NCBI GenBank assembly: GCA_964436045.1
Contig: CAYTBN010000027.1
Coordinates: 1,409-65,408, forward strand
Source: an uncultured Rickettsiales bacterium
GTDB taxonomy: Bacteria; Myxococcota_A; UBA796; UBA9615; CAYRNR01
DNA length: 64,000 bases
Reading direction: 5' to 3'
Shown here: positions 33,079-62,859 of the stretch, piece after piece
Position numbering within the stretch: position 1 is the stretch's first letter
Layout: every line of letters starts with the position of its first letter
Program-made: the position numbers and the translations under genes
The notes under the pieces: model-generated
Seen by the model: the letters and a program-made list of their open reading frames with translations, nothing else
Database searches by the model: none
Told to the model about the DNA's origin: nothing

Positions 33079-33285
33079 TTGTTTCCCGAAACGTCTCCGA
33101 GTGGCCGATCTCGACCCTCTACCGTTGGACTCCCCGTCGCGCCGTTTGTTCCAACCGCCGCTCCGTGCCCTTCCCCCGCGAACCCAGTTCGTAAGATTAC
33201 CACACCCAGCACCGTCCCCACGGCCCCCCGGGGGCGGATTTCGCACTTGGATCCATCGTCCACCGCCAGGCTTCCTTGACCCGAA

Positions 33286-40876: not shown

Positions 40877-41719
40877 TCAGGGGCTCAGGGCAACCCGGTG
40901 GGCGGAGATGTCCCCGGTCATGACGACGCCCAGGATCTCACCCTCGAAGCTGCCCTCCATCTCGTCGGAGGCCACGAACGAACCGGCGTAAGCGGTCGGC
41001 AGATCGAACCAGCCGAGGACGGAGATGCCGATCTCCCCGTCGATGGAGTCGCCGAGGATGTCGCCGCTGATCACCAGGTCCAGATCCAGATCCAGGTAGC
41101 CCGCGATGCTGGCGATGCAGGCGCCGGTACCGTCCAGCACCTCGCCGTAGGGGTCGACGATGAAGTCCACGGCCCCCACGCAGGCGCCGGAGATCGGGAC
41201 GCCCTGGATATCGAGGGCGATGCCGACGTTGACCGTTCCCGAGTAGACGCCGGCGTACTCGTGCTGGACCAGGATCCCACCGACCGCGTAGGTCAGCCGG
41301 TCCCCGTTGGGCAGCTCGGTCTCGGCCTTGATCACGTGCTCGCCGACCGGGAAGTCCTCGAACTCGCCGCTGGCGCCCACGTACTCGAAGGACTCGTCCT
41401 GATCGGTGGTCCAGAGGATCTCGTCGTAGCCCGTGGGATCGCCGTTCTCGTCCAGCACCTCGGCGTCCAGCAGCATCGGCGTGCCCAGCGGCACGAAGTC
41501 GCCCGACTCGGGCGAGTACACGACCAGCTCCGCGCCGTCCCACATGGAGTCGTCGTCCCCTGTGTCGTCGTCGTCGTCATCGTCATCGTCGGTCGGCGTG
41601 TCGTCGTCGCCGGTGTCGTCGTCATCGGCCGGAGGTGCCACGAGCCCCGTCTCCGAGCATCCCGCCAGTCCGAAGAGCAGCACGACAGCGAACACGAACA
41701 TGGTGTGCCAGCGACTCAT
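40877..41719 (-). CDS. Lipoprotein with poly-Asp linker
   Basis: Start MSRWHTMFVFAVVLLFGLAGC (lipobox). The linker PPADDDDTGDDDTPTDDDDDDDDDTGDDD follows. Then a beta-rich domain. Confidence 0.55.
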   Translation of the reverse strand: MSRWHTMFVFAVVLLFGLAGCSETGLVAPPADDDDTGDDDTPTDDDDDDDDDTGDDDSMWDGAELVVYSPESGDFVPLGTPMLLDAEVLDENGDPTGYDEILWTTDQDESFEYVGASGEFEDFPVGEHVIKAETELPNGDRLTYAVGGILVQHEYAGVYSGTVNVGIALDIQGVPISGACVGAVDFIVDPYGEVLDGTGACIASIAGYLDLDLDLVISGDILGDSIDGEIGISVLGWFDLPTAYAGSFVASDEMEGSFEGEILGVVMTGDISAHRVALSP

Positions 41720-41854
41720 CTTCACCTCCTGGCCCGTGAACCCGGCACGCAGTATGGCCCACCCACCCCCCACCGACAAGGGCGCAGCGTGGCCTGGGGC
41801 GGGCTGAATCAGCCTTTTCCTCTCCCCTCCCGGAGCTGCCGTATACTGCCGCTC

Positions 41855-42112
41855 ATGACGAAAAAAACGATGGAGAAGCTGTCGTTCGAGCAGGCGCTGG
41901 TGCGGCTGGAGGAGATCGTGGGGCAGATGGAGGCCGGCGAGGTGACGCTGGATGCCTCGCTGTCGCTGTTCGAGGAGGGGACCGCGCTGTCGCGCCACTG
42001 CACGGGCAAGCTCGACGCGGCGGAGGAGCGGATCCGGGTCCTGACGGACGATGGCGCGGGCGGTATCGCCGAACAGGATCTGGACGGACCCGCCGACGGC
42101 GGGGGCAGCTGA
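41855..42112 (+). CDS. xseB: Exodeoxyribonuclease VII small subunit
   Basis: 85 aa. SFEQALVRLEEIVGQME...LDASLSLFEEG is the canonical XseB sequence. Confidence 0.85.
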   Translation: MTKKTMEKLSFEQALVRLEEIVGQMEAGEVTLDASLSLFEEGTALSRHCTGKLDAAEERIRVLTDDGAGGIAEQDLDGPADGGGS

Positions 42113-42120
42113 GCCCCCCC

Positions 42121-42867
42121 GTGGCCAGGGATCGGCTGCGACTGGATGCCCTGCTGGTGCAGCGGGGAGACGTGCCGTCGAGGGAGCGGGCCCGGGCACT
42201 GATCATGGCGGGCGACGTGCTGGTGGACGACCGGCCGGTGGACAAGCCGGGGACCCGGATCGCGGCGGACGCCACCATCCGGCTGCGGGTCCCCGACCAT
42301 CCCTACGTAGGCCGCGGCGGCGTCAAGCTGGCCGGGGCCCTCGACGACCTGGACGTCTCGGTGTCAGGCCTGCGCTGCCTGGACGTGGGTGCCAGCACCG
42401 GGGGCTTCACCGACTGCCTGCTACAGCGTGGGGCGATCTCGGTGACCGCGGTGGACGTGGGCACCAATCAGCTGGACTGGCGGCTACGCTCCGATCCGCG
42501 GGTCCGCGTCCTGGAGCGAACCGACATCCGCAAGCTGGACCCCGCCGAGGCCGGCGGGCCCTACCCCCTGATCACCATCGACGTCAGCTTCATCTCCCTG
42601 CGCCTGGTCCTGCCGCCGGTCATCGGCCTGCTGGAGCGGTCCGGGCGCGTGCTGGCGATAATCAAGCCCCAGTTCGAGGTGGGACGGGAGCGGGTGGGCA
42701 AGGGCGGCGTGGTGCGGGACCCGGCCGTCCGTCAGGAAGCCATCGACGCTGTGATCGGTGTCGGCGACTCCCTCGGAATGGCGTTCGTGGGCTCGGCCGA
42801 CGCGCGGATCGCCGGCGCGAAGAAGGGCAATCGCGAACACTTCGCGCTGTGGATCTCGGGGGGGTAG
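42121..42867 (+). CDS. tlyA: TlyA-family rRNA 2'-O-methyltransferase
   Basis: S4-like N-terminus (RLDALLVQRG). FtsJ-like MTase motif is LDVGASTGGFTD. Confidence 0.85.
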   Translation: MARDRLRLDALLVQRGDVPSRERARALIMAGDVLVDDRPVDKPGTRIAADATIRLRVPDHPYVGRGGVKLAGALDDLDVSVSGLRCLDVGASTGGFTDCLLQRGAISVTAVDVGTNQLDWRLRSDPRVRVLERTDIRKLDPAEAGGPYPLITIDVSFISLRLVLPPVIGLLERSGRVLAIIKPQFEVGRERVGKGGVVRDPAVRQEAIDAVIGVGDSLGMAFVGSADARIAGAKKGNREHFALWISGG

Positions 42868-42919: not shown

Positions 42920-43516
42920 CTACAGGTCTTCCATGGGGTGCATCGTGCACTCCGCGAAGTTCCCATCGTAGAAATCGGTGCAGCAGTACCAGACCTCGAA
43001 GTTGTGGCCCAGATTCTCGCAGACGAACAGGGACTCGTCAACCAGCGGCGGCCAGGTCATCGTGTAGTCCAGGTCCAGCCACCAGCTGTCCCAGAAGCCG
43101 TTCAGGTCGTCCCAGCCGAAGCTGTACTCGTCCGTTACCATCTCCCAACCGGGACGCTCGATGCCGCCGTAGTTGCAGGGATCGCCGGCAACGTCGAACC
43201 CCTCGCAGTAGCCCGGGTCCTCGGTCAGGTCCCACATCTCGACCCAGCAGTCCTCGGCCCAACCGTCCATCTCGACGAAGAAGTCGAACGTGCCGCTGGG
43301 CGGCGGCTCGTCCGACGAGCTCGGCACGTCGACCGTGCAGCCGGTCTCCAGATACGCGTTGCCCATGTCGATGGTGCCCGTGTAATCGGGCCGGTCGTCA
43401 TCCGTCGTGTCGTCGTCGTCACCGGCGGAATCGTCGTCATCCTCGACGGTCGGACAACCCCACATGATCAATCCCAAGCCCAGCATCAGCACGAGGAACA
43501 GGTTCGTGTTCTTCAT
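42920..43516 (-). CDS. Lipoprotein with poly-Asp linker and Trp/Cys-rich C-terminal domain
   Basis: GGGAGAGGA RBS precedes the start MKNTNLFLVLMLGLGLIMWGC. The linker is EDDDDSAGDDDDTTDDD. The C-terminal domain has many W/C/D residues (WDDLNGFWDSWWLDLDYTMTW). Confidence 0.55.
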   Translation of the reverse strand: MKNTNLFLVLMLGLGLIMWGCPTVEDDDDSAGDDDDTTDDDRPDYTGTIDMGNAYLETGCTVDVPSSSDEPPPSGTFDFFVEMDGWAEDCWVEMWDLTEDPGYCEGFDVAGDPCNYGGIERPGWEMVTDEYSFGWDDLNGFWDSWWLDLDYTMTWPPLVDESLFVCENLGHNFEVWYCCTDFYDGNFAECTMHPMEDL

Positions 43517-43672
43517 TTGGTCCTCTCCCTTTTTCTCGTTGGCTTCCCCACCGACCCATGAACGGGTCGATACACGCCTCGTATTTTGCGGCAATTTAGC
43601 ATGGGGTCGAGGGCCCTGAACAGGGCACTTCGTTTCCCCATACCGATTTCAGGTTGCTAACATCGCTGATCG

Positions 43673-44083
43673 ATGATGGCAACCCCCCGCCGCCTCCCCA
43701 CCCTGCTCCCGTTGACAGCGCTGTTGCTGATCTCGACCGCCTCCCTCGGCGGGTGCGCCCACCGCCATACCGAAGAGGGCAAGGCCACCTGGTACGGCCC
43801 GGGCTTCGTGGGCAAGCACACCGCCAACGGCGAACGGTTCTGGCCCTGCCGGCTGACGGCCGCGCACAAGACCCTGCCCTTCGACACCCGGGTCAAGGTC
43901 ACCAACCTGGAGAACGGAAAGGTCGTCCGGGTCCGAATCAACGATCGTGGCCCCTTCGGCGAGGGCAGGATCATCGACCTGTCCCGGGCGGCGGCGGCGG
44001 CGATCAAGATGGTACGAGCGGGGGTAGTGAAGGTGGAGATCGAGGTGATCAAGTGGCCGAAGGGGCACAAACCGGAGTCATGA
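43673..44083 (+). CDS. RlpA-like lipoprotein (double-psi beta-barrel)
   Basis: Lipobox SLGGC, then [21 protein letters not shown]...[26 protein letters not shown] (DPBB). Confidence 0.75.
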
Positions 44084-45620: not shown

Positions 45621-46001
45621 TCAGAGGCTCGGGCCGGTGGGATCCTCGTCTTCCAGATCCTGGAAGGATGGCTGCTCGGGCAGCTCGAGATCCTCGCAGG
45701 TCGGCGCCGCGGCCACCGAGAGGTTGGCGGTGATACACCAATCGTAGAGCGCGTTGCGATCCTCGGTCCGGGCCACGACGAGGGCGCGCTCGAAGCGGTC
45801 CAGGCACTTGGAGTGGTACTCCTCCGCCGAATCCGCGCCCACGCTCTGCCACGTGAGGTCCTCGGTACCGCTGTCGTCGGGCGGCACCACACACCCATTG
45901 TAGAAGTCAGTGATGCTGTCGCAGTAGGTCTGGCACGGCGTGTTGCAGCCGGCGAGCACCAGTCCGGCCAGCGCCGGGATCCACCACCATCGTATGTTCA
46001 T
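45621..46001 (-). CDS. Hypothetical lipoprotein (last gene of Tad-like locus operon)
   Basis: Start MNIRWWWIPALAGLVLAGC. Cys-rich. Its start overlaps the cpaF2 stop (ATGA). Confidence 0.5.
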   Translation of the reverse strand: MNIRWWWIPALAGLVLAGCNTPCQTYCDSITDFYNGCVVPPDDSGTEDLTWQSVGADSAEEYHSKCLDRFERALVVARTEDRNALYDWCITANLSVAAAPTCEDLELPEQPSFQDLEDEDPTGPSL

Positions 46002-47134
46002 TTTTTCAGATCCTCCTTGCGCCGGGCCGCCTCGGCCATGTCGGCCATGGCCTTGGGGAGCGCGATCCCTTGAAGCCGGATGTCCTCGGCGAACGCGGGT
46101 ACCCCGCGACATTCGAGACGGCCGATGGGGCCATCCTTGCCCCGGGCCACCACGCGGTACCGGTAGATATCTGTCACCTGATACGAGTTGTCCTTGGTAA
46201 GCGTCAGCACCTCGGAGACGTGGGTCACCTTGCGGGTCCCGTCGGGGAAGCGCTGGATCTGAACCAGCAGGTCGATGGACGACGAGATCTGGGACCGCAG
46301 CGCATGGAGCGGCAGTTGCACATCGCTCATCATGCACAGGGTCTCGATTCGGGCCAGGGCATCGTGGGGGTTGTTGGCGTGGGTGGTGCTCATCGAGCCC
46401 CGGTGACCCGATGTCATCGCCTGGACCAGGTCCAGCGCCTCGGGACCGCGCACCTCGCCGATCACGATCCGATCGGGCCGCATCCGCAGGCTCGTGCGCA
46501 GCAGATCGCGCATGGAGACCTCGCCCCTGCCGTCCCGGTCCGGCGGCCGCGTCTCCAGCGTGATCACGTGGGGCTGCTGCAGCTGGAGCTCGCTGCTGTC
46601 CTCGAGCACGAGGATCCGCTGGTCGAGGGGGATGCGCGTCGACAGCACGTTGAGCAGCGAGGTCTTCCCCGAGCCGGTCCCACCGGTGACCAGCAGGTTG
46701 CGGGAGCTCGCGACGCAGACGCCGAGGAACTCCGCCGTCTCCTCCGACAAGGTCTGCAGCTGGACCAGCTTTTCGATGTTCATCACCTCGCGCTGGAACT
46801 TGCGGATCGCCAGGTAGATGCCTTGCCGGGCAACCGGCGGCATGATCACGGTCACCCGGGCACCGTCGGGCAGGCGGGCGTCGAGCAAGGGCTGCTCGGC
46901 ACTGATGCTCTTGCCCACGAACTGGGCGATGTTGCGCACCGCGGAATCCAGCGCGGCCTCGTCGGGGAACCGCAGCTGGGTCTGGTGCAGTCGCCCCGCC
47001 CGCTCGACGTACACCTCGCTGGCGCCGTTCACCAGGATGTCGGAGACCTTGGGATCCGCCAGCGCCTGGGACACCGGTTGGAGGTGGTCCCGCAGGGTCT
47101 GCGCGAAGATCTCGTTCAGGGATACCTGCGCCAC
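45998..47134 (-). CDS. CpaF/TadA-family secretion ATPase (paralog 2, no FHA domain)
   Basis: Walker A is GGTGSGKTSLLNVL. T2SSE motifs are IVIGEVRGPEALD and MTSGHRGSMSTTHAN. GTG start at 47134 is supported by GGGGAG 7 nt upstream; the track ATG at 47191 would overlap the upstream gene by 56 nt. Confidence 0.8.
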   Translation of the reverse strand: MAQVSLNEIFAQTLRDHLQPVSQALADPKVSDILVNGASEVYVERAGRLHQTQLRFPDEAALDSAVRNIAQFVGKSISAEQPLLDARLPDGARVTVIMPPVARQGIYLAIRKFQREVMNIEKLVQLQTLSEETAEFLGVCVASSRNLLVTGGTGSGKTSLLNVLSTRIPLDQRILVLEDSSELQLQQPHVITLETRPPDRDGRGEVSMRDLLRTSLRMRPDRIVIGEVRGPEALDLVQAMTSGHRGSMSTTHANNPHDALARIETLCMMSDVQLPLHALRSQISSSIDLLVQIQRFPDGTRKVTHVSEVLTLTKDNSYQVTDIYRYRVVARGKDGPIGRLECRGVPAFAEDIRLQGIALPKAMADMAEAARRKEDLKK

Positions 47135-47135
47135 G

Positions 47136-49601
47136 TCACAGCTCCCCCAGGCGTGAGGCCGCCTTGTCGTAGTACGTGAACCCGTCGCCACGGGGGGCGA
47201 TCGCCATCACCTGCTCGTACGACTCGCGCGCGGACTCGACGCCCCCGCCGCGTTCGGTCTGGTACCCCTCCAGGTAGATACCCTTGGCGATCTCCTCGAG
47301 CTCCTTGCGTCCGGCCGAGATGCCCTTGTGGCTCGACCACGCCTTGCGCCCCGAGCTCCATTCGAAGTTGGCCTTGGCGTACTTGCCGTTGTCGAAGGCC
47401 TCCCGACCACGCCGGTAGCGGCACTCGGCCAAGCCCTGTCGGATCTCGTCCCGCCGGTTGTTGCTGCCTTCCATCCGCGTGACGTTCTTGTACGAGGACT
47501 CGAAGCGGTCCAACGCCGCGTCCAGCTCACCGCGGTCCATCGCCTTGTTGCCGGCGGCGAAGGCCCGCTCGACGCGGTCGAGGCGGCCGAGCACGTCCTG
47601 CAGCTCGAGCTTCTGCCCGGGATCGGAGGCCGTGTCGATGGCCCGCTCGAGGGTGGATCGCGCCTGCTCGACATCGCCCGCCGTATAGGCCGATATTGCC
47701 TGTTCGGCGACCTTCTCGGCCGAGCTCGAGGAGCGGCGTTCGTCCCGCGACGAGCGATCGCGGTCACGGTCCCGATCGCGGTCACGGTCACGGCCCGCCT
47801 CCTGCGCGGGGGTACTGTCCTCGGTCGCCACCGTTTCGGGGATGCCAGCGGTGTCCAGCTCCCGCCCCAGGTTCTCCTTGTACTGCTCGATCAGCTTCTT
47901 GCGCTTCCGCGGCTTGGCCTCGGCGATGGACCTCAGCTCATCGGGCCCGCTGACCGCGGGGTCGTAGGCCTCCGCCCCGTCCAGCGAAGCGAGGGCGTCG
48001 TCGATGTTGTCGTTCTCGAGGGCCACCACCGCCTCGTCCACCATCCGGCGGGCCACCAGCGGGATCATCGGCTCCACCAGCGACTTGGCCTGGATGAAGT
48101 AGCAGGAGGTGGCCGGAATACTCTTGTAGGCCTCGTAGGCACGGCCGAAGTCCAGATGCACGCTGGACTGGCTGTACAGCTTGACGAACTCCTGGACGTC
48201 CCCCAGCCGGGACAGGTTGTCCCGCTCCTGGGCGATGTTCTGGAGGTAGGCCTGGGCCTCGGTGTAGCGGGGATCGATATCGATCAACTGAACCAGGTAG
48301 CCCTCGGCGGTGTCCCAGTCCTGCTCGTCGTACGAGGCCGCCCCCGCCAGGTACATCGGCTCCATGTCGCGGCGGGTGTTGCCCGCACCGAAGTTGAACA
48401 TGTAGCCGGCGGCCTGGAACAACAGCGCGAGCACGATCACGACGCCGACAGATCCCAGGATCGCCAGCTGCCAGGTGCGGAACTGGAGCCCCCCCACCGC
48501 CACGAGCCCCTTCTTCGCGGGCTTGGCTGCGGTCTGGGCAACCGGCGCGGCCTGACGCGGAGGCGCCGTCTGGGGCCCCAGGGTCGCGCCGGCCTGGACG
48601 CTCGGTGGCAACGCGCTCACTTCGCGCATGGTCGCCGCGGTGCGACCGCTGCGAGAGGGCGGGCCGGGTGTCAGTGCCTGGGTCGGATGGCCGGACGGCG
48701 GCAGCGGCGCCGCCGCACTCATCTGGGCTGCGAGGGACGCTGGCGCAGCCTCGCCTGGCCGCCGGAAGAGCATCAGCACGCCGCCGATCTGCAGGCGCGT
48801 CCCGTTGATCAGCTCCGCCTGGGCGACGTCCTGGCTGTCCACCCGGATTCCGTTGGTGGACCCGGTGTCCTTGACCACGTACCGTCCGCCGTCCAGGTCG
48901 ACCCTGGCGTGCTGGCGGGACACGAACGGGTCGTCCAGTACCAGGTTGTTGCGGCTGCCGGCGCCGATGGTCACACCCCGACTCCCGACCGTGATCATGT
49001 GCCCCTTGCCGTCGCCGTCGACGATCTCGAGATAGGCGTGACCCTCGCGCGCGGTCATTCCACTCTCGGTCGCCCGCACGACGTCGGCCGGCGAGGCCCC
49101 CCCCGGCGCCCGTCCGGCGAGGGGGTCGGTCATGGGCATCGAGCGGGCGAACTGGCCCGGCGGAGTGGCGGGGGGCTGTGCCGGTGCCGCCTCCACGGGA
49201 TCCAGCAGGTCGGAGACATCCGCGTCCGCCGGCGAAGGGGCGCCCGGATCGAAGGCCTCGGGGACCGGCGAGCTGCCCTTGGGCCGCAGGTAGCCCGGCA
49301 GCCCCTCGTCGCCCTCGGCGAACACCAGTTCGTAGGGGCCTACCCGGATCCGGTCGCCGGTGGAGATGGCCACCTCGCCGTCGACCCGGATCCCGTTGAT
49401 CAGGGTGCCGTTGGACGAGTTGAGGTCCTTTGCGGCAAACCCGCCATCCTGCTTGATGATCTGACAATGGAACTTGCTGACCTGGCGGTCGCCGAGCACG
49501 AGGTGGTTGCGACTGTCCCGGCCGACGGCGAACTCGTCCCGGTCGACCGGGCGGGAGAAGCTCCGCCCGTCGGCCGTACTGACGGTGATCTGCGCCGTCA
49601 T
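47136..49601 (-). CDS. Double-FHA-domain membrane protein with C-terminal TPR-like domain
   Basis: Two FHA cores are present: FAVGRDSRNHLVL...SSNGTLINGIRV and ITVGSRGVTIGAGSRNNLVL...STNGIRV. A Pro/Ala-rich linker follows. One TM helix is present (LAILGSVGVVIVLALLF). A (DR)5 low-complexity tract and helical TPR-like repeats follow. Confidence 0.75.
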   Translation of the reverse strand: MTAQITVSTADGRSFSRPVDRDEFAVGRDSRNHLVLGDRQVSKFHCQIIKQDGGFAAKDLNSSNGTLINGIRVDGEVAISTGDRIRVGPYELVFAEGDEGLPGYLRPKGSSPVPEAFDPGAPSPADADVSDLLDPVEAAPAQPPATPPGQFARSMPMTDPLAGRAPGGASPADVVRATESGMTAREGHAYLEIVDGDGKGHMITVGSRGVTIGAGSRNNLVLDDPFVSRQHARVDLDGGRYVVKDTGSTNGIRVDSQDVAQAELINGTRLQIGGVLMLFRRPGEAAPASLAAQMSAAAPLPPSGHPTQALTPGPPSRSGRTAATMREVSALPPSVQAGATLGPQTAPPRQAAPVAQTAAKPAKKGLVAVGGLQFRTWQLAILGSVGVVIVLALLFQAAGYMFNFGAGNTRRDMEPMYLAGAASYDEQDWDTAEGYLVQLIDIDPRYTEAQAYLQNIAQERDNLSRLGDVQEFVKLYSQSSVHLDFGRAYEAYKSIPATSCYFIQAKSLVEPMIPLVARRMVDEAVVALENDNIDDALASLDGAEAYDPAVSGPDELRSIAEAKPRKRKKLIEQYKENLGRELDTAGIPETVATEDSTPAQEAGRDRDRDRDRDRDRSSRDERRSSSSAEKVAEQAISAYTAGDVEQARSTLERAIDTASDPGQKLELQDVLGRLDRVERAFAAGNKAMDRGELDAALDRFESSYKNVTRMEGSNNRRDEIRQGLAECRYRRGREAFDNGKYAKANFEWSSGRKAWSSHKGISAGRKELEEIAKGIYLEGYQTERGGGVESARESYEQVMAIAPRGDGFTYYDKAASRLGEL

Positions 49602-51019
49602 CTACGGGCGTCCTTCATCGCCTGCTCGATCTGCGCAAGCTCGCGGGCGGCGTACTGGAAGCGCTCATCGGTCTCATCGTCGATGAGCCGCATGATGAAT
49701 CCCAGCTCCTCCTGGCCCTCCCGGTAGTTCCCGGCGCGCTTGAGCTTCTGGTAGTGAAACAGCGCGTCCCGATGCTTCTGGTCGCGCAGGTCCTCGGCCT
49801 CCCGCAGCTTGGCCTCCACGTCCGCGACCAGCGAGCCGGGCTCCCCCAGCAGTTGCAGGGTGGCATTGGAGTTTCGCAGCTGCTGGATCGCCTGCGTCAG
49901 GTTCCCGTCCTGGAGGTGGTGCTCCTCGAGCTTCTTGCTGCCCACGTCCAGGTACTTCTGTGCGTCCGCCCGCAATTCGGCGTCCGACCGTCCCGCCCGG
50001 TCGCCCACGATCACCGGTGCCGACGAGCCACCCGCCTCGCCCCGGTCATAGGTCGCGGTGCCGGCGGTGCCGGCTCCCGGCACGATGGCATCCTTCCAGG
50101 CCCAGAGCGCCAGCAGCAGCATCACCAGCAACATCGCGGCGCGCACACCGTTGCTCTGCAGCGGGGACTTCTTGCTCTTCTGGCGGGCGGTGACCCCGTC
50201 GGCCATGCCGTCGGTCGCCTCCTGGATCGCCACCGACAATCGGCGCGGGTCCAGCTCGTCGAGCTCTGCTTGATCCTGGGCCGGTTTGCTGGGATCGGTC
50301 AGGATGACCGCCTGGCTGGGGCCCGGCTGCGCGACCGGCGCGGGCGCGCAGCCGGGCAGCACCCGTGTGTGCTCGTCGTCGCCGCGCCCGGGCACGCCGA
50401 GCTGGGCCGCGCCGCTGGCTGCGGCGGGCTGGGCCACCGGGCTGCCGAGGAGCTGGGGGGCCGCGGGGGCACTCTCCTTGGACCGGCCGCGCGGCAGCAC
50501 CTGGGTGTGCTGGTCGTCGGGCCGTCCGGGATCCTCCAGGTCGTCCGCCGGCTCCAGCGGTGCGTTGGGCACCAGATCCAGCGAGTCCTCGTCGTCGTCG
50601 TCGAGGCCGTCCAGGCTGATCTCGGGCATCGCCGGGCCGGGCGCCAGCGGATCGGGCGCGCTCCTCGCCCCGGCACCCCGGCTGGCGCGGTAATCCAGCG
50701 TCCGCGGCCCGGTCTGCTCCGGCCGGCTCAGATCGGGGTCGAAGCGCAGCTTGTAGTCGCAGACCGTGATCTCGTCGCCGGCCTTCAGCTCGACGTTGCT
50801 GACCTTCTCGCCATTGACGTGGGTCGGGTTGCGGCTGTGGCCCACCACCAGCACCGCCCGGGCGGCCTGGGCGTGGATCGCGCAGTGCACCCGGGAGACC
50901 GACGGGTCGTCGAAGACGATCTCGCAGCCGCGATCCCTGCCGATCCGGATCACCTGGGAGCGGAAGGTCACCAGCGGACCGGTCTCACGCTTGTCCAGGA
51001 TCTGGATCTTCACCGGCAT
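49598..51019 (-). CDS. FHA-domain membrane protein
   Basis: Start MPVKIQILDK. The FHA core is IRIGRDRGCEIVFDDPSVSRVHCAI...NPTHVNGEKV. An acidic disordered region and one TM helix (AAMLLVMLLLALWAW) follow. The C-terminus is coiled-coil-like. Confidence 0.7.
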   Translation of the reverse strand: MPVKIQILDKRETGPLVTFRSQVIRIGRDRGCEIVFDDPSVSRVHCAIHAQAARAVLVVGHSRNPTHVNGEKVSNVELKAGDEITVCDYKLRFDPDLSRPEQTGPRTLDYRASRGAGARSAPDPLAPGPAMPEISLDGLDDDDEDSLDLVPNAPLEPADDLEDPGRPDDQHTQVLPRGRSKESAPAAPQLLGSPVAQPAAASGAAQLGVPGRGDDEHTRVLPGCAPAPVAQPGPSQAVILTDPSKPAQDQAELDELDPRRLSVAIQEATDGMADGVTARQKSKKSPLQSNGVRAAMLLVMLLLALWAWKDAIVPGAGTAGTATYDRGEAGGSSAPVIVGDRAGRSDAELRADAQKYLDVGSKKLEEHHLQDGNLTQAIQQLRNSNATLQLLGEPGSLVADVEAKLREAEDLRDQKHRDALFHYQKLKRAGNYREGQEELGFIMRLIDDETDERFQYAARELAQIEQAMKDARR

Positions 51020-51036
51020 GGGTCCGCGCTGCTCGT

Positions 51037-51945
51037 TCACACCAGGTCCCCGTTCATGTAACGCACGATCAGCGGGCCGAACATGGTCAGGAACACCGCG
51101 ATCAAGATCATCAGGATCGGGAACAGGATCTTGATGGTCGCCTCGGCTGCGATCTTCTCGGCCCGCTGGGTCCGCTTCAACCGGTTGGCCTGGGCCTGCA
51201 CCTGGAGGATCCGGGACAGCGGCGTCCCCATCGCCTCGGCCTGCACCACCGCGCCGACCACGGAGGTGACGTACTCGGACTGGATTCGATCCGACATGTT
51301 CAGCAGGGCCTCGCGCCGGGTCACACCGAGCCGGATCTCCTGCAGCACGTAGTGCAGCTCCTCGATCAGCGGGCCCTTCTGGCTCTCCTTGCTGACCACC
51401 GAGTCCAGGGCGGTGTTGAAGTCCAGCCCGGCCCCCAGGCTCAAGCTCAGCAGGTCGAGCACGAAGGGCAGGTGGCGGTTGACCGCCGACAGCCGGCGAA
51501 TGATCAGATCCTCCATGTAGAGGAAGGGCAGGTAGGCGCTGATCATCCCCGGGATCATCGCCAGCAATGGGCTGGCGCCGCCGAGCCCCACCGCGGTGAA
51601 GGCGATGCCGAACAGCATGCCGCTGATCCCGGCACACACGCAGGTGGCCAGGAACTCGTCGGGGGTGAATCCGCCCGGGTGACCGGCGCGGGCCAGCTTG
51701 ACCTTGAGTCCCGCTCGGACCTTGTCCAGATCCAGCGTCCCGATCCAGTAGGTGGGGATGAAGATCAGGATCCGGAGCATCACGTAGGCCTGGTTGCTGT
51801 CGGCCAGCTGCTGGCGCTTGAAAGCAACGAACCCCTTCTCGGGCGCCTCGCCGTCCCAGTCCTCGTCGGGGGCCATCGCCCGCACGGCCGCGTAGACCGC
51901 CAGGAACAGGACCGCGGATGCGAACAGGCCGTAGATGTACAGCAT
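51037..51945 (-). CDS. TadC/GspF-like inner-membrane platform protein
   Basis: T2SSF-domain features (LGAGLDFNTALDSV...QAEAMGTPLSRIL) and three TM segments. Confidence 0.8.
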   Translation of the reverse strand: MLYIYGLFASAVLFLAVYAAVRAMAPDEDWDGEAPEKGFVAFKRQQLADSNQAYVMLRILIFIPTYWIGTLDLDKVRAGLKVKLARAGHPGGFTPDEFLATCVCAGISGMLFGIAFTAVGLGGASPLLAMIPGMISAYLPFLYMEDLIIRRLSAVNRHLPFVLDLLSLSLGAGLDFNTALDSVVSKESQKGPLIEELHYVLQEIRLGVTRREALLNMSDRIQSEYVTSVVGAVVQAEAMGTPLSRILQVQAQANRLKRTQRAEKIAAEATIKILFPILMILIAVFLTMFGPLIVRYMNGDLV

Positions 51946-52805
51946 CAGATGTCCGCCGCCAGGATCCGCCGGATGAGGAACACGCCGACGGCCTCGAAGG
52001 CCAGGATCAGGAAGATGATCACGTAGCCCTTTGGATCGGTGAACAGCTCGGAGATGTACTCGGGATCGATCAGATAGACGGCGAAGGCGAAGGCGGCCGG
52101 CATGCCACCGATGACCCAGCCCTGGAGCTTACCCTGGGCGGTCATGGTCTTGATCTTCTCCTCCAGGCGGAAGATCTCGCGGATCGCCGACGAGGTGTCC
52201 TCGAACACCTGGGGCACGTTGCCGCCGTGGACCCGGGTGATCAGGATCCCGGTCATCACCATGTCGAAGAACCGGCTGCGCAGCCGGTTGCCCATCTTGA
52301 CCAGCGCCTCCTCCAGGGTCAGCCCCAGCTTGTGCTCCTTGAGCATCAGCCGGAACTCCTGGTTGATGGGCGGCTCCATGGAGTCGGAGACCACGTCCAT
52401 TGCCTGGGTCAGCACCAGGCCGGCGCGCATGGAGTTGGCCATCGACTGCAGGGCGTCGATCAGCTGCTGGTCGAACTTCTCCATCCGCTTCTGGCGGGCG
52501 CGTCGCAGCAGGAAGGTGGGCACGAAGTAGGCCAGCCCGGCGATCACGATGGCCCCGAACCAGCCGATGAAGTTGGCCACACCCAGGAAGACCAGGATCA
52601 TGAAGGCGATGTGGTAGACGAAGAACCGCTTGGGCGAGAACTCGATGTACAGGTCGTCCAGCTGGGAGCCGACCCAGTCCACGTAGCGCGCATAGAAGTC
52701 GTCGAGCTTCTGGGTCACCCAGCGTCCGTTGAGCGCCACCACCAGGAGCATGGTCACCAGGAAGCCCAGCACCACCAGGATCAGGAACGGGGTCGAGGTC
52801 CACAT
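51945..52805 (-). CDS. TadB/GspF-like inner-membrane platform protein
   Basis: T2SSF-domain features (MANSMRAGLVLTQAMD...) and TM segments. Its stop and start are adjacent to the flanking genes. Confidence 0.8.
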   Translation of the reverse strand: MWTSTPFLILVVLGFLVTMLLVVALNGRWVTQKLDDFYARYVDWVGSQLDDLYIEFSPKRFFVYHIAFMILVFLGVANFIGWFGAIVIAGLAYFVPTFLLRRARQKRMEKFDQQLIDALQSMANSMRAGLVLTQAMDVVSDSMEPPINQEFRLMLKEHKLGLTLEEALVKMGNRLRSRFFDMVMTGILITRVHGGNVPQVFEDTSSAIREIFRLEEKIKTMTAQGKLQGWVIGGMPAAFAFAVYLIDPEYISELFTDPKGYVIIFLILAFEAVGVFLIRRILAADI

Positions 52806-54406
52806 CAGAGGAACTCCCCGTCGGTGATGATGCCGCGCGCCACCAGGTCGGGGATGAAGGTCGGGATGTAGCCGGTGGTCTTGGTCTCCCCCATCACCGT
52901 GCCGTCCTCGGCCAGCCCATGCCGCAGGAAACGGAAGATCGGCTCGACCACGAAGTCGCCGTGCTCGTCCAACCGGGTCACCTCGGCGACCTCGGTGACC
53001 TTTCGGCTGCCGTCGCTCAGCCGCTCCTGGTGGACGATCAGATCGATCGCCGACGTGATCTGGTGGCGGACCGCGGAGATGGGCAGATCCATGCCGCTCA
53101 TCAGCACCATGGTCTCCAGCCGCGCGAGCATGTCCGACGTGGAGTTGGAGTGGCCGGTGGTCAGCGAGCCGTCGTGACCGGTGTTCATCGCCTGGAGCAT
53201 GTCCAGGGCCTCACCGCCGCGGCACTCTCCGACGATGATGCGGTCGGGCCGCATGCGCAGGGAGTTCTTGACCAGGTCGCGGATCGTGAATTCGCCCCGG
53301 CCCTCGATGTTGGCCGGCCGCGCCTCCAGGCAGACCACGTGCTCCTGGTCCAGTCGCAGCTCCGCCGAGTCCTCGATGGTGACGATCCGCTCCTTGTCAG
53401 GGATGAAGGTACTCAGCACGTTGAGCAGGGTGGTCTTGCCGCTACCGGTTCCGCCGCTGACCAGCACGTTGCAGCGCCCGCGCACCGCCCGCTGCAGGAA
53501 GCGGGCGATCTGGGGGGTCATCGTGTTGAACCCGATCAGGTCTTTCATCGTCAGCGGGTCGCGGCGGAACTTGCGGATGGTGATGCACGGGCCACGGATC
53601 GCCAGCGGCGGGATGATCGCGTTGACGCGGCTGCCGTCCTTGAGCCGGGCGTCCACCAGCGGCGATGACTCGTCGATCCGCCGGCCCAGCGGGGTGACGA
53701 TCCGCTCGATGACCGCCCGGATGGCATCGTTGCTGGTGAAGGTCTTGTCCGTCAGGGTGATCTTGCCGAGCTTCTCGATGTAGATCAGGTCCTTGCAGAC
53801 CACCATCACCTCGGTGATGTCGTCGTCCTTGAGGAAGTCCTCCAGCGGGCCGAGCCCCAGTGCCTCGTCGAGGATCTCCTTGACCAGCACCGCCCGGTCG
53901 ACGTGCTCCGGGATGGAGACCTTGCCGGCTCCGATGATCTCCTCGAGGGCCTGCTTGGACTGGCGGAAGACCTCCTCCTCGCCCAGGGCCTCGATATCGA
54001 GCCGCTTGAGGTCCAGGTGGTCCAGCAGCGTGTCGTGCATCGTGCGCTTGGTCTGCAGAACCGGGTCGTCCGCGCGCCGTTCGGCGATGGACGGGCCGCC
54101 GACCCGCGCGTCGGCGCTCACCAGGTCGACCTCGACCCGGCAGTCGCCGAGGATCACGTCGTCGCCCTCGCGCAGCATGACGTAGGAGTCGATGGGGGCA
54201 CCGTTGACCAGCGTGCCGTTGACGCTGGCGTCGATCAGCGACACCTCCTCGTCGTTGAAGAACACCCGTGCGTGCTGGCGGGAGACCGCCGGCGAGTTGA
54301 GCACGAGCTCGTTGGCATTGGGATCACGGCCGATGCGCACGGGCGAATTGGCGAACACCCGTTCCTGGACCTGACCATCCGAGCCGAGGTACCGCACTCT
54401 GAGCAT
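52805..54406 (-). CDS. FHA-domain-fused CpaF/TadA-family secretion ATPase
   Basis: The N-terminal FHA is VRIGRDPNANELVLNSPAVSRQHARVFF...SVNGTLVNGAPI. The C-terminal ATPase has Walker A GGTGSGKTTLLNVL, IIVGECRGGEALD and MNTGHDGSLTTGHSNS. Confidence 0.85.
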   Translation of the reverse strand: MLRVRYLGSDGQVQERVFANSPVRIGRDPNANELVLNSPAVSRQHARVFFNDEEVSLIDASVNGTLVNGAPIDSYVMLREGDDVILGDCRVEVDLVSADARVGGPSIAERRADDPVLQTKRTMHDTLLDHLDLKRLDIEALGEEEVFRQSKQALEEIIGAGKVSIPEHVDRAVLVKEILDEALGLGPLEDFLKDDDITEVMVVCKDLIYIEKLGKITLTDKTFTSNDAIRAVIERIVTPLGRRIDESSPLVDARLKDGSRVNAIIPPLAIRGPCITIRKFRRDPLTMKDLIGFNTMTPQIARFLQRAVRGRCNVLVSGGTGSGKTTLLNVLSTFIPDKERIVTIEDSAELRLDQEHVVCLEARPANIEGRGEFTIRDLVKNSLRMRPDRIIVGECRGGEALDMLQAMNTGHDGSLTTGHSNSTSDMLARLETMVLMSGMDLPISAVRHQITSAIDLIVHQERLSDGSRKVTEVAEVTRLDEHGDFVVEPIFRFLRHGLAEDGTVMGETKTTGYIPTFIPDLVARGIITDGEFL

Positions 54407-54443
54407 CGCTAACCGATCCTCCGTTCGTCGCGCCGACGGGCCA

Positions 54444-55620: not shown

Positions 55621-56439
55621 TCAGCGGATGATGTTGATCAGCTCGTTGCGCTTCGTCTGGACCTGGTTGCGCTTCTTCTCGCCGAAGACGTCGCTGAAGT
55701 CCTTGGGCGGCAGCGCCAACTCGGTGGTGATGTCGTTCTCGTTGCGCAGGGACAGCGCGATCTTGCCCTTGTCGACCGAGAAGGTGAGCAGCTCCGCCTC
55801 CTCGGGGGTGACCAGCACGGTCACGGTCTGGTAGCCGCGGCCCGAGGTGGACTCCGACGAGCCCCGCTCCTTGCTGCCCAGGCGGGCACCCACCGCCAGC
55901 ACGGTCACGTTCTGCAGCAGGGTGATGGTGACCCACTCCTTCTTCTCGGGCTTCATGAAGGTGCCGAGGATGTCCACGTGGTCGTTGGGCTGGAGCAGGC
56001 CGCCCATGGAGGAGACCTGGTCGACCGGGATCGACATCGCCCGCCACCCCTCCTTGACCACCTGGTCCAGCTCCACGTCGGAGCGCGGGTCGGAGAAGTC
56101 TGTCCACAGCAGGGTCTGCCCCTCGCGGATGGTATGGGCCACCCGCTGGCCGACGATCCGCTCCCACTCGTTGATGAACACCGACTGCGGGTGCACGTAG
56201 GACTCGGGCACCTCGATCTGCGTCAGCATGTCGTGGGAGATGGGTTTGTCTGCTGCGATGTCGAACTTGGCGGCGACCAGGGTCACCTTCTCACCGGCGA
56301 CGCCGTACTTGGCCGCCAGCTGCTGGGTATAGATGTACAAGAGCAGCACCGCGAGGATCGCCAGACCGAGGGAGACCAGCAACACCTTCCGTCGATTGGA
56401 GGGTACACCGCTGGTCGCATTCTGCTTGTTGTCCGCCAC
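55621..56439 (-). CDS. CpaB/RcpC-like Flp pilus assembly protein
   Basis: N-terminal TM (VLLVSLGLAILAVLLLYIY) and a SAF/CpaB-like periplasmic region. Confidence 0.65.
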   Translation of the reverse strand: MADNKQNATSGVPSNRRKVLLVSLGLAILAVLLLYIYTQQLAAKYGVAGEKVTLVAAKFDIAADKPISHDMLTQIEVPESYVHPQSVFINEWERIVGQRVAHTIREGQTLLWTDFSDPRSDVELDQVVKEGWRAMSIPVDQVSSMGGLLQPNDHVDILGTFMKPEKKEWVTITLLQNVTVLAVGARLGSKERGSSESTSGRGYQTVTVLVTPEEAELLTFSVDKGKIALSLRNENDITTELALPPKDFSDVFGEKKRNQVQTKRNELINIIR

Positions 56440-56503: not shown

Positions 56504-57535
56504 TCAGTTCAGCGAGCCCGGCGGGCCGGTGACCACCACGGTGGTCACCGTGGTGCGGGTCTCCGGATCCTCCGTCGCCGTCACATGACACTGCTGCCGT
56601 CCGCGGACGAAGAGTGCCGACGGGGCGGAGCCACCCGCCGCTGCCGCCTCCGCGACCCTGGAATCTTCCGACCAATCGTACTGCGGAAGCTGGGTCGAAT
56701 AGAAGTCCAGGACCGACATTGCGTCGCGCGCGGACTGATACTGGCCCATGTGGACCAGCATCGAGCCGCTGTCCTGGGAGAACGACAGGAGGCGCACGTC
56801 ACCGGGTACGCGGGGTACGTCGGGGGGATCGGAACCGGGGGCGTCGTCCTCGCCATCGGTGGACACGGCGCGCACGTCGAAGTCCTCGGAGGGCCAGGCG
56901 GCCATCACGGTGGTCGAGCGGGCGCCGGGCTGGCGCAGGGCCAGGACGAACTTGGCGTCGCCCAGGTCCGAGATGCGCCCGCTGGCCGCGGCGGCCTCGG
57001 CCCGGCGGTTCATCTCCTCGGCCCAGCCCGGCTCGTCCCAGTCCGGGATCACGGCGGTGCCGTAGATCCCCCAGGTGCCGGCGTCGATGCGGGTCCCGCG
57101 GCGGCCGATGCGCTCGTTCATCTGCTCGCGGAGCCGATCCCAGTCCTCGCCTTCGATGTCGGGGTTCTTCGGGCTGTCCCCTCCCAGTTCGCCGGGAGGT
57201 CCCCCGTAGAGGTCCTCGTAGTAGTCCAGGACCTCGTCGACGGTGCGCCAGTCGTTCTCGAGGGTGTAGTAGATGCGGTTTCCGTTGAGGGTCGCGGCCT
57301 GTACCGAGCCCGGATCGACCTGCAGGTCCCACACCGACGGCACGCCAGCGAACGCGTCTCCCAGGGACTGGAAGACCGTGGCCTCGGCCGGCGGATTCAG
57401 CGGGGAGTTGGCATGACCGAACCAGAACACGGCCAGCGCGAAGGCGACGATCGCCGCCAGCCGCCAGGCCCGGTCCAGGATCGACCTGGACCCGCCCGAA
57501 CTAGAAGCACCAGTCGCAGAGTCCGTAGATCTCAT
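56504..57535 (-). CDS. Hypothetical single-pass membrane protein within Tad-like locus
   Basis: TM (LAAIVAFALAVFWF) then an acidic periplasmic domain of about 290 aa. No known motif. The start may be downstream of the track start, which overlaps tadE by 35 nt. Confidence 0.45.
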   Translation of the reverse strand: MRSTDSATGASSSGGSRSILDRAWRLAAIVAFALAVFWFGHANSPLNPPAEATVFQSLGDAFAGVPSVWDLQVDPGSVQAATLNGNRIYYTLENDWRTVDEVLDYYEDLYGGPPGELGGDSPKNPDIEGEDWDRLREQMNERIGRRGTRIDAGTWGIYGTAVIPDWDEPGWAEEMNRRAEAAAASGRISDLGDAKFVLALRQPGARSTTVMAAWPSEDFDVRAVSTDGEDDAPGSDPPDVPRVPGDVRLLSFSQDSGSMLVHMGQYQSARDAMSVLDFYSTQLPQYDWSEDSRVAEAAAAGGSAPSALFVRGRQQCHVTATEDPETRTTVTTVVVTGPPGSLN

Positions 57536-58121
57536 TGTATGCCCACATGTCCAGGTACGCCTCGTAGCCCCAGAGCACCACGTTGCCCTCGATGTCCTCG
57601 TAGTCCCAGTTCCCGATCGCGATCTTGTGCGTGCGCGTCACGTTGATGTTGCTGGCGTAGGGCAGCAGCGAGTTGCGGATCGGCTGGACCACCGTGGCCT
57701 CGTAGTGAGTGTCGACGGGCGCGATCCCGGTGGCCAGCATGGTGGCGATCTGGCTGTAGTTGATCAGCCCGGTCGGGTTGGTGAGGCCGCCCGGATCGGG
57801 GAATTGCAGAAAGATCGACGGGTCGAAGTCGCTGAGGTTCTCCAGGGTGTCGTTGGAGGCACTGCCGGAGATCGACGCCCCGGCCAGCTTGAAGTCGTTC
57901 TGTGCCTTGGCGGACGCCGCCGACAGGCTGTGGTTCGGGTCGTGGCGCCCGGCCTTCCAGGCCACGTAGCGTACGGCGATCTGGGCGTTCTGCTCCTGAT
58001 AGTAGGCCTTGCCGAAGTGGATGATCCCCATGATCAGGACCAGGAAGATCGGCAGGGTCACGGCGAACTCGACCGTGGCCTGCCCGCGGACGTCTTCGCG
58101 CAGTCGGCGGATGGCTCTCAT
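57501..58121 (-). CDS. TadE-like pseudopilin
   Basis: N-terminus MRAIRRLREDVRGQATVEFAVTLPIFLVLIMGII is the TadE signature. Confidence 0.75.
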   Translation of the reverse strand: MRAIRRLREDVRGQATVEFAVTLPIFLVLIMGIIHFGKAYYQEQNAQIAVRYVAWKAGRHDPNHSLSAASAKAQNDFKLAGASISGSASNDTLENLSDFDPSIFLQFPDPGGLTNPTGLINYSQIATMLATGIAPVDTHYEATVVQPIRNSLLPYASNINVTRTHKIAIGNWDYEDIEGNVVLWGYEAYLDMWAYNEIYGLCDWCF

Positions 58122-60423: not shown

Positions 60424-60520
60424 CTTATCGGGGCCCTGGCGCTGCCGGGACGGTTTTTTGCAAACTCCTCGCATCCGCGCTGCCCGCGCACGGGGTTGCG
60501 CACGGAGGCGCACACGTTTC

Positions 60521-62190: not shown

Positions 62191-62730
62191 TCAGAACAGG
62201 TCCATGTGTCGCAGCAGGTCCAGGTTCTCCAGGCTGGCCCAGATCGTCCCCACCGCGATCGCCACCCCGAAGGGAACCCGCTGGCTGTTGGCCGGATCCA
62301 GCTTCTGGGTCTGCATCGGCATCGCCCAGGTGACCACGGTCCACAGGGTGTTGCGGATCCCCCGCCACAGCACACCCTTCCACAGCATCACCGACACCGC
62401 GAGCACTCCCCCGACCAGGATCGTGTGGAAGAGTCCGCCCACGATCGCGGGATACCCCACGATCGCCCCCGCAGCTCCCATCAGCTTGACGTCGCCGCCC
62501 CCCATGCCGCCGAACAGGAACACCAGGAAGAAGGGCACGAAGCCCACCGCGAGCCCCAGGCCGTGCTGGCCCAGCTCGGGCAAGCCGCCGGCCACCACGG
62601 CCAGGACGAGCCCCAGCGCCACCGCGGGGTAGGTGATCTGGTTGAAGATCTTGCCGGTCGCCAGGTCGCTCAACGCGCACAGCACCATCACGCCGTACAA
62701 GAGCACCTTTTCGGCGACCTCATAGGGCAT
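62191..62730 (-). CDS. Prepilin peptidase CpaA/TadV (A24 family)
   Basis: 179 aa polytopic protein. Asp-containing motifs (LSDLATGKI...GGGDVKLMGAAGA) are typical of TadV/CpaA. Confidence 0.8.
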   Translation of the reverse strand: MPYEVAEKVLLYGVMVLCALSDLATGKIFNQITYPAVALGLVLAVVAGGLPELGQHGLGLAVGFVPFFLVFLFGGMGGGDVKLMGAAGAIVGYPAIVGGLFHTILVGGVLAVSVMLWKGVLWRGIRNTLWTVVTWAMPMQTQKLDPANSQRVPFGVAIAVGTIWASLENLDLLRHMDLF

Positions 62731-62859
62731 CGGTCGGGCCCGCGCAGCCTATGGTGAAACGAGTAGAGAACAAGAGGACGACTCCGAGAAAACGTGCGCT
62801 GGATCCCCAATGGCCTGTGCTATGGTTCCGCTGCACGGAATAGCGGGAAGGTACCACAG

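Follow-up and report, generated by a model that had tools for sequence, protein, structure and literature searches.

The window analysed here, a stretch of 64,000 nucleotides (64 kb, G+C about 68%) from contig CAYTBN010000027.1, encodes a Kil-type Tad-like system of Myxococcota, and directly after its platform gene tadC lie two genes for membrane proteins with FHA domains, hereafter X (49598-51019 on the minus strand as annotated, 473 aa) and Y (47136-49601 on the same strand, 821 aa). We tentatively favour the view that X and Y are accessory inner-membrane subunits of this FHA-CpaF machine, and that they act as a phosphothreonine-gated docking scaffold at its platform. The locus adds no new kind of system, FHA components having already been described in kil clusters; what is new in this analysis is the enrichment of threonine motifs in the linkers of these proteins, the loss of a phosphate-binding arginine from the second FHA domain of Y, a large family combining FHA domain, transmembrane (TM) helix and TPR-like domain, a module of X, Y and a second ATPase, and the non-conservation of an (RD)6 tract in Y.

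The Kil system of Myxococcus xanthus is of the Tad-like kind: its ATPase, KilF, is fused to an FHA domain, its secretin is short, and it is devoid of TadD, TadG and RcpB (Seef et al. 2021, PMC8460266). The window shares with it the phylum, the FHA-fused ATPase, the absence of TadZ, a short secretin in which no N0 domain is recognised and an order in which the platform genes are followed by an FHA gene and then by a gene for an FHA and TPR protein. In M. xanthus this order runs from MXAN_4651 (KilG) and MXAN_4650 (KilH) to MXAN_4649 (FHA; PrgH by HHpred) and MXAN_4648 (FHA and TPR; PknG by HHpred) (PMC8460266, Supplementary file 1), homologues of the latter two are on record in Bradymonas (PMC8460266), and metagenome-assembled genomes (MAGs) labelled Myxococcaceae among the distant relatives of our locus give the same weak labels, YscD/PrgH-like and PknG-type TPR. 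The two systems are not identical, however, since the M. xanthus kil genes lie in two clusters and are described as encoding one ATPase whereas the window has a contiguous operon with a second CpaF-like ATPase, since MXAN_4648 is described as FHA plus TPR whereas Y has two FHA domains, and since X and Y each possess a clear TM helix, unlike the FHA and TPR protein KilD (MXAN_3108), which has been described as a cytoplasmic protein. The domain order of the motor itself, FHA-IDR-CpaF (IDR, intrinsically disordered region), has been named 'class III' CpaF (Yen et al. 2025, PMC12019362). Kil clusters are rich in FHA proteins, which have been proposed as candidates for signalling or assembly since 2021 (PMC8460266, PMC10433427, PMC12428579), which the literature of 2025-2026 still lists as candidates (PMC12428579, bioRxiv 10.64898/2026.07.08.737194), and which papers and reviews after 2021 still call uncharacterised (PMC12428579, PMC10433427, bioRxiv 10.64898/2026.07.08.737194).

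Two FHA membrane proteins in the slot after tadC

The genes from tadE through the small lipoprotein form one translationally coupled operon on the minus strand, in which Pfam assigns the order TadE-like, TadG-like, TadE, a 343-aa protein, CpaB, secretin, FHA-CpaF, TadB, TadC, X, Y, a second CpaF-like ATPase (ATPase2) and the lipoprotein, and the Tad core set is all present (prepilin peptidase, CpaB, secretin, CpaF, TadB, TadC, Flp pilins and TadE/F-type pseudopilins). The junctions tadC/X, X/Y, Y/ATPase2 and ATPase2/lipoprotein are 4-nt overlaps or 1-nt gaps. An earlier sequence-only reading of this DNA had both FHA genes overlapping their neighbours, which is true of the X/Y junction (ATGA, 49598-49601) and also of tadC/X if X starts at GTG 51040, but not of Y and ATPase2, where the stop of Y is followed by 1 nt and then by the start codon GTG 47134. 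The GTG at 51040 overlaps the tadC stop (GTGA) seven codons upstream of the annotated ATG 51019 and would lengthen X from 473 to 480 aa; since relatives of X begin at the matching codon (P0030, VSEQRGPQPVKIQ; 4-nt overlaps in the related loci L001, L002 and L004), the gene probably extends over 49598-51040. An NCBI protein 100% identical to X is named 'FHA domain-containing protein [Myxococcota bacterium]'.

X has one FHA domain (Pfam E 1.3e-16), an acidic linker (DGLDDDDEDSLD; net charge of -14 over residues 99-285) and a TM helix at residues ~290-312, just as the sequence-only reading had it. The linker is disordered, and after the TM helix comes a conserved helical bundle (346-472) that the same reading overlooked. 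No part of X is better conserved than this C-terminal bundle of 125 residues, which also occurs in the more distant X proteins described below as tier 2 and whose hidden Markov model (HMM) has matches in tier 1-2 loci. In the 22-member family alignment the FHA domain keeps the canonical GR..SRxH..N, with R28, S42 and R43 invariant and H45 and N64 nearly so; its fold matches the structures of GarA, OdhI, FhaA and YscD (Foldseek against the PDB), and X also matches the Pfam family Yop-YscD_cpl (E 1.3e-12). Since the TM helix is flanked by four K/R on its N-terminal and one on its C-terminal side, the N-terminus of X is predicted to be inside the cell.

The second protein, Y, likewise has the two FHA domains (PF00498, E 1.1e-33 in two stretches) and the TM helix (379-397) that had been read from its sequence. 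The helix is internal, and there is neither an N-terminal signal nor a lipobox of the kind found in TadD. As to the TPR-like domain also claimed for it, the C-terminal part is helical and two-lobed (AlphaFold2 (AF2) pLDDT, the per-residue confidence, about 85-95, with a disordered stretch between the lobes) and Foldseek returns designed TPR proteins and P58IPK among its matches, but the TPR matches of Pfam to the lobes are single and below the gathering cut-offs. In the PDB, Foldseek matched the X and Y models alike only to FHA and TPR structures of a generic kind, and to nothing specific for the predicted periplasmic domains; the FHA folds of Y match the same four structures as that of X, and its match to Yop-YscD_cpl is stronger (E 5e-30). 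Both proteins are predicted to be bitopic, with FHA domains and linker in the cytoplasm and the helical domain in the periplasm. The tract of Y first described as an 'RS-like (DR)5' repeat does exist, but it is (RD)6, lies in a variable linker and is confined to the four closest sequences in the 16-member alignment, the window and its three closest relatives, and we have dropped it as a functional feature.

Three of the four FHA domains encoded in the operon, those of X and CpaF and FHA1 of Y, keep GR..S[RK]xH..NG, invariant or nearly so, the exception being FHA2 of Y. Here an invariant Ala214 stands where GarA and the three other operon domains have the phosphate-contacting Arg, as judged from the alignment with the G-R of GarA, and yet conservation along Y in the 16-member alignment is highest in FHA2.

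The linker of X carries a motif of the 'DDEHTRVLPRG' type, G-R-x-[DE]-[DE]-x-[HK]-T-[RQ]-[VI]-[LM]-P, in two copies, and in three in some relatives. The shorter pattern T-x-[VI]-hydrophobic occurs 33 times in the linkers of 22 non-redundant X proteins as against 1.7 +/- 1.3 times in residue shuffles (0/2000 reach it), the version with acidic residues before the Thr is found in 17 of these 22 linkers (0.5 expected), and the n1 proteins, further FHA membrane proteins of distant loci, show [DE]-x-T-[RKQ]-[VILM] ('GEATRM', 'ESTRI') 33 times in all as against 1.9 +/- 1.4 in shuffles (0/1000), although shuffling residues ignores the kinship of the sequences and overstates significance within sub-clades. 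Variants recur in sub-clades with otherwise unalignable linkers, such as GEGDGTMVYTPP three times in L018 and GRSDDDRTLPSY in L005, and as 'DPDRTVVF' and 'DGATHVLP' in tier-2 linkers. Because the motif recurs across linkers that do not align with each other, it argues for a functional short motif. The usual ligand pattern of FHA domains is a Thr with a hydrophobic residue at +3.

Homologues were gathered as 22 clusters of X and 15 of Y, all metagenomic and sharing contigs, and related loci were taken from protein-index contexts and from a genome scan anchored on a 20-sequence TadC alignment (80 loci, MAGs only) and submitted to an HMM census. Counts of occurrence refer to the 58 related loci that have at least 5 kb of sequence downstream of tadC: X is found in the same place in 21 of them and Y in 14, Y never without X, and ATPase2 follows downstream of tadC in 55. 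The co-occurrence with FHA-CpaF, which the sequence-only reading had proposed to look for, is complete, in that every X-bearing locus whose contig includes the start of CpaF has the FHA domain there (22 of 25; in the remaining three the end of the contig truncates CpaF). In L006 the FHA domain of X is present in the stop-to-stop open reading frame (ORF), but the called gene misses it.

The related loci fall into three tiers by the identity of their TadC to that of the window. In tier 1 (at least 55%) the order is tadC, X, Y, ATPase2 and small lipoprotein, and in tier 2 (45-49%) it is tadC, X and ATPase2, and Y does not occur within 10 kb. Tier 3 (32-37%), which comprises Polyangiales, Sandaracinaceae, Labilithrix and the MAGs labelled Myxococcaceae, has the order tadC, X' (~290 aa), Y' (a TPR protein of 200-290 aa), ATPase2 and n1. 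In X' a degenerate FHA-like region (hhalign 86-92%; Pfam Yop-YscD_cpl ~1e-6) forms the N-terminus, and a TM helix and a tail that is helical but unrelated make up the rest. Of 31 Y' proteins 25 carry a lipobox and are in this respect TadD-like TPR lipoproteins. The protein n1 (~500 aa), found directly after ATPase2 in L007 (10741-12213), L010 (12850-14388) and ~35 other tier-3 loci, has a weak FHA domain, a linker rich in Pro in which 'GEATR[MIL]'/'ESTR[ILM]' recurs, and a TM helix, ends in a short TPR-like tail, and is by its predicted architecture a third recurrent FHA membrane protein of FHA-CpaF operons. HMMs of the C-terminal domains of X and Y do not detect the tier-3 slot proteins X' and Y', and as the profile-profile comparisons are insignificant as well, homology between these domains is not claimed. 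Among the loci of the collection, L004 has transposase genes of the IS66 and IS21 families (715-4417) in place of the tadE/tadG pseudopilin genes upstream of cpaB. Many of the closest records (L011-L017, L019, L020 and others) are titled 'uncultured Rickettsiales bacterium' and hold loci near-identical to those of Myxococcota MAGs, and these titles are probably due to mislabelled deposited bins.

The architecture itself reaches well beyond these loci. A profile of the TM helix and periplasmic part of Y, built without FHA columns, has 1512 matches with E<=1e-3 and 254 with E<=1e-10 among 1.84 billion representatives, and because 58-59 of 60 end-to-end matches carry an FHA domain N-terminal to the match (Pfam), the unit of FHA domain, TM helix and helical domain is old and widespread and not a local fusion.

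Proposed phosphothreonine docking and its rivals

The scaffold that we favour would work as follows. A Ser/Thr kinase encoded elsewhere would phosphorylate the acidic-Thr-x-V/I-hydrophobic motifs in the juxtamembrane linkers, such as 'DDEHTRVLPRG' in X, and the phosphothreonines would be read by FHA domains of the same operon, namely the N-terminal one of CpaF, that of X and FHA1 of Y, so that a signal would be required for motor and scaffold to cluster and to dock on the TadB/TadC platform. FHA2 of Y probably makes a constitutive protein contact, since it has lost the phosphate-binding Arg and is nevertheless nearly invariant. Through their periplasmic domains X and Y would link the platform with CpaB and the secretin, and would thereby take both the role and the slot of the TPR lipoprotein TadD.

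The combination of FHA domains with a disordered segment holding Thr sites is known from Rv1747 of Mycobacterium tuberculosis, an ABC transporter that carries a phospho-acceptor linker in addition to two FHA domains, from GarA/OdhI and from DgcB of Bdellovibrio, and these proteins are the best matches in sequence and structure to the FHA domains of the window, although their output domains and pathways differ. In these proteins the phosphorylated linker Thr is bound by the FHA domain, leading to self-association or switching. A further likeness is to Fha1/TagH with PpkA/PppA of the type VI secretion system (T6SS), where an FHA protein gates a contact-responsive envelope machine, an analogy drawn already for Kil (PMC8460266). 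The NCBIfam model TagH (TIGR03354) however scores 102.0 bits, below its cut-off of 120.25, and in the FHA region only, the kinase and PP2C phosphatase of T6SS clusters have no counterpart found in the window, and Fha1 is soluble.

Several points weigh against a phosphothreonine-gated scaffold, the kinship among the linkers counted above being one of them. The phosphorylation of the linker threonines is a prediction from the motif, and the prediction that the helical domains are periplasmic draws on the positive-inside rule, on FHA domains assumed to be cytoplasmic and on analogy with the lipoprotein Y'. No Hanks-type kinase or PP2C phosphatase was found by Pfam among the coding-like ORFs of the window, and a kinase signature was matched in just 1 of 92 sequences (91 loci and the window) by regular expressions for kinase and PP2C; these are stringent, and a gene truncated where its contig ends, as the kinase gene of L002 is, would escape them. 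That gene (1-548), in a tier-1 relative, encodes 687 aa with a Pkinase domain directly upstream of the tadE genes and has no equivalent in the window. Furthermore, 13 tier-2 loci have X without Y, which makes Y dispensable in a whole sister clade, and X' keeps the FHA fold but not the residues that bind phosphothreonine, so that the fold can serve without phosphate reading. The sequence link between Y and Y' or TadD is not significant (hhalign 12-42%, one repeat only), and the orthology of X and Y to MXAN_4649, MXAN_4648 and KilD would follow from architecture and gene order and not from sequence.

The main rival does away with phosphate. X and Y may be structural subunits of an inner-membrane ring or alignment complex around TadB and TadC, similar to SctD (YscD/PrgH/PscD), in which the FHA domains would dock the ATPases in a fixed manner and no kinase would take part; we regard this as unlikely on balance. 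SctD too has an N-terminal cytoplasmic FHA fold, a single TM helix and a periplasmic domain, both X and Y match Yop-YscD_cpl, YscD and PscD are among the structural matches, and MXAN_4649 was labelled PrgH-like by HHpred (PMC8460266). The degenerate FHA fold of X', the conservation of FHA2 in spite of its missing Arg and the failure to find a kinase or phosphatase in the locus all fit such a role. The FHA fold of SctD is however without the residues that bind phosphothreonine, whereas the FHA domains of X and CpaF and FHA1 of Y keep them family-wide, and the Thr-centred motifs are conserved and enriched in disordered linkers that otherwise cannot be aligned. In addition, the periplasmic part of SctD is made of alpha/beta ring-building motifs, whereas the predicted periplasmic domains of X and Y are all-helical where the AF2 models are confident.

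A phosphothreonine-gated scaffold may also be taken further than we have done above, to the claim that the motif, in the form acidic-x-Thr-Arg-(V/I/L/M)-hydrophobic ('DDEHTRVLPRG' in the window, 'GEATRM'/'ESTRI' in distant Myxococcota), is a dedicated phospho-switch of FHA-CpaF pilus machines, set by a contact-activated kinase and docked by the FHA domains of the motor and of Y, that kinase-gated pilus assembly does the job done elsewhere by TadZ, and that X, Y and ATPase2 make up an unrecognised module with a second motor, possibly for retraction or an alternate one. This extended version we consider doubtful. Tad and Kil machines are described as having a single ATPase, and the present operon has two of the CpaF kind: ATPase2 is 44% identical to residues 173-526 of CpaF, has an intact Walker A box (GGTGSGKT, found by regular expression over the window ORFs) and, when started at GTG 47134, has 378 aa, the same length as in relatives.

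The notion that X and Y strictly replace TadZ, as the positional landmark that decides where the machine is built, is improbable. In canonical tad loci (Aggregatibacter actinomycetemcomitans, Caulobacter) tadD comes after tadC and tadZ before tadA, and L009 is an example of such a locus with a genuine TadZ. The sequence-only reading placed the two genes in the position of TadZ/TadD, and this is right for TadD alone, since X and Y directly follow tadC and the slot of TadZ between secretin and cpaF is an empty gap of 37 nt (54407-54443). That TadZ is missing, as the same reading held, is on the other hand well borne out: no CbiA, ParA or AAA_31 domain was found by Pfam across ~50 coding-like ORFs of the window, an HMM of TadZ made from L009 gave no match over all window ORFs (best E 0.17), and in the HMM census of 89 related loci the +/-10 kb around tadC were free of TadZ. 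The outcome that would have spoken against the sequence-only reading, a neighbouring tadZ/cpaE homologue combined with FHA genes that are not conserved in relatives, was looked for and not found. A spatial role of FHA proteins would agree with the assembly of Kil at prey contacts 'through unknown spatial determinants' (bioRxiv 10.64898/2026.07.08.737194) and with KilD, which is essential for killing and whose foci at prey contacts appear earlier than the Tad core and do not depend on it (PMC8460266). X and Y show neither a ParA/MinD fold nor a P-loop, their only matches being to FHA and TPR, and thus differ in fold as well as in slot from TadZ/CpaE, a soluble ParA/MinD-like ATPase with a deviant Walker A box and an N-terminal receiver-like domain, even if the same job of bringing the motor ATPase into place is conceivable for them. 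Moreover, Y is missing in tier-2 loci that lack TadZ too, and a positional cue given by integral membrane proteins would itself need an upstream signal. Bdellovibrio has a TadZ fused to TadA together with FHA/TPR genes near its tad loci (bioRxiv 10.64898/2026.07.08.737194), and because it has both, FHA proteins and TadZ are not mutually exclusive. Of the localisation or activation scaffold equivalent to TadZ proposed from the sequence, then, the activation half agrees with the reading favoured here and the idea of a scaffold with the behaviour of KilD, but slot, fold and the dispensability of Y in the sister clade speak against the equivalence, which is a guess at function.

It is more improbable again that Y is a membrane-anchored TadD, serving the short secretin from the periplasm as a TPR pilotin or assembly factor, with its FHA domains a late add-on and X a separate adaptor of ATPase2. 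Such a view would account for the slot directly after tadC, for the genuine TPR lipoprotein found exactly there in distant loci, for the TPR-like C-terminal domain predicted to be periplasmic and for the adjacency of X and ATPase2 kept in tier 2 without Y. TadD is however a lipoprotein needed for secretin assembly, whereas Y is anchored by a TM helix and has 370 cytoplasmic residues with two FHA domains, of which FHA2 is its most conserved part; the comparison of Y with the slot lipoproteins is the insignificant one given above, and the antiquity and spread of the FHA-TM-domain combination do not suggest a recent add-on. Finally, that X and Y are general FHA signalling proteins which merely lie beside pilus genes is scarcely credible, for although one distant member of the Y family, P0141, is found outside a Tad operon (with a lone T2SSF gene 2.4 kb away), the 4-nt overlaps of start and stop codons at the tadC/X and X/Y junctions, the fixed place between tadC and ATPase2 down to 45% TadC identity and the restriction of the family to FHA-CpaF operons among the loci examined all contradict it.

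Coordinates and neighbouring genes

Table 1. Positions in the window of the Tad/Kil genes and of the parts of X and Y, with the basis of each assignment.
Feature	Position	Strand	Basis and remarks
Two Flp-type pilin genes	~62896-63054 and ~63077-63262	+	G/xxMTEY processing motif
Prepilin peptidase (Peptidase_A24)	62191-62748	-	Pfam; just upstream of operon
TadE-like pseudopilin gene	59452-60513	-	Pfam
TadG-like pseudopilin gene (PF13400)	58121-59455	-	Pfam
TadE pseudopilin gene	57501-58121	-	Pfam
343-aa protein between tadE and cpaB	56504-57535	-	No Pfam or NCBIfam match
cpaB/rcpC	55621-56439	-	Pfam RcpC and SAF
Short secretin, 389 aa	54444-55613	-	Pfam; C-terminal Secretin domain is the sole part recognised
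FHA-CpaF motor ATPase, kilF-like, class III CpaF	52805-54406	-	Pfam FHA E 2.9e-16 and T2SSE E 5.4e-60
tadB, kilG-like platform protein	51945-52805	-	Pfam T2SSF
tadC, kilH-like platform protein	51037-51945	-	Pfam T2SSF
Gene X, predicted bitopic FHA protein	49598-51040 probable; 49598-51019 in NCBI annotation	-	Pfam, 22-member alignment, junction sequence
X FHA domain, residues 1-98, predicted cytoplasmic	50726-51019	-	Pfam E 1.3e-16
X linker motif copy 1, GRPDDQHTQVLPRG, Thr172 invariant in family	50486-50527	-	22-member alignment
X linker motif copy 2, GRGDDEHTRVLPGC, Thr218 invariant in family	50348-50389	-	22-member alignment
X TM helix, residues ~290-312	50084-50152	-	AF2 model, hydrophobicity
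X C-terminal helical bundle, residues 346-473, predicted periplasmic	49601-49984	-	AF2 pLDDT ~90
Gene Y, predicted bitopic protein of 821 aa, two FHA domains, TM helix, two-lobed TPR-like domain	47136-49601	-	Pfam, 16-member alignment, AF2
Y FHA1, residues 1-98, canonical phosphothreonine-binding residues	49308-49601	-	Pfam, alignment
Y FHA2, residues 186-284, nearly invariant across family	48750-49046	-	Alignment
Y linker motif GRTAATMREV, predicted cytoplasmic; G319, R320, T324 invariant	48618-48647	-	Alignment
Y TM helix, residues 379-397, Kyte-Doolittle 2.52	48411-48467	-	AF2, hydrophobicity
Y helical/TPR-like lobe A, residues 414-578, predicted periplasmic	47868-48362	-	AF2
(RD)6 tract of Y, residues 604-615	47757-47792	-	Lies in a linker (residues 588-625) that is disordered and not conserved
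Y helical/TPR-like lobe B, residues 627-821, pLDDT >90	47139-47723	-	AF2, alignment
ATPase2, second CpaF-like ATPase, 378 aa, without FHA or N-terminal region	45998-47134	-	Pfam T2SSE E 4.8e-58
Small lipoprotein, 126 aa, lipobox LAGC	45621-46001	-	ATG overlaps ATPase2 stop (ATGA); HMM matches in tier 1 loci

The Flp-type pilins (ESGQAMTEYILVV and ETGQGMTEYILIV) are encoded divergently from the prepilin peptidase gene at the edge of the window and complete the Tad set. The prepilin peptidase gene is separated from the first tadE-like gene by a gene for a predicted polytopic membrane protein of 512 aa (60617-62155, minus strand, start MVSGRGTRTAMLAALVAGLGG) that has no Pfam match, and the position of the 343-aa protein upstream of cpaB is held by a protein of similar size in L001, L002, L006 and L008. 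Near the other end of the operon, on the opposite strand, a DPBB_1 gene (43670-44083, plus strand) encodes an RlpA-like lytic transglycosylase fold, and as such a gene is likewise found near the operon end in L001 (15531-15980), L002 (15261-15617) and L004 (15291-15728), it is possibly a cell-wall-cutting partner, or simply part of a conserved neighbourhood. Two predicted lipoproteins farther on (40877-42199 and 42920-43594, minus strand) have long runs of Asp right after the signal peptide (DDDDTGDDDTPTDDDDDDDDDTGDDD and DDDDSAGDDDDTTDDD), and two adjacent large proteins (28691-31348 and 31339-33285, minus strand) have an N-terminal zinc ribbon (Zn_ribbon_4/5) and C-terminal TPR repeats and are followed by a small zinc-ribbon protein of the TFIIB type (28331-28690).

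Bearing on the triggering of the Kil pilus

The window locus departs from the published description of Kil in its second ATPase and in the clear membrane anchoring of both FHA proteins, and it bears on what triggers the Kil/Tad killing pilus when predatory myxobacteria touch their prey. It offers several handles for this question, namely a bitopic pair in a fixed slot, the threonines Thr172 and Thr218 of X and Thr324 of Y, an FHA2 domain without its Arg and a widely shared second ATPase, and these can be mutated in the cultured relatives Myxococcus and Bradymonas. If phosphothreonine-gated docking proves true, it would explain how this branch of the Tad machines dispenses with TadZ.

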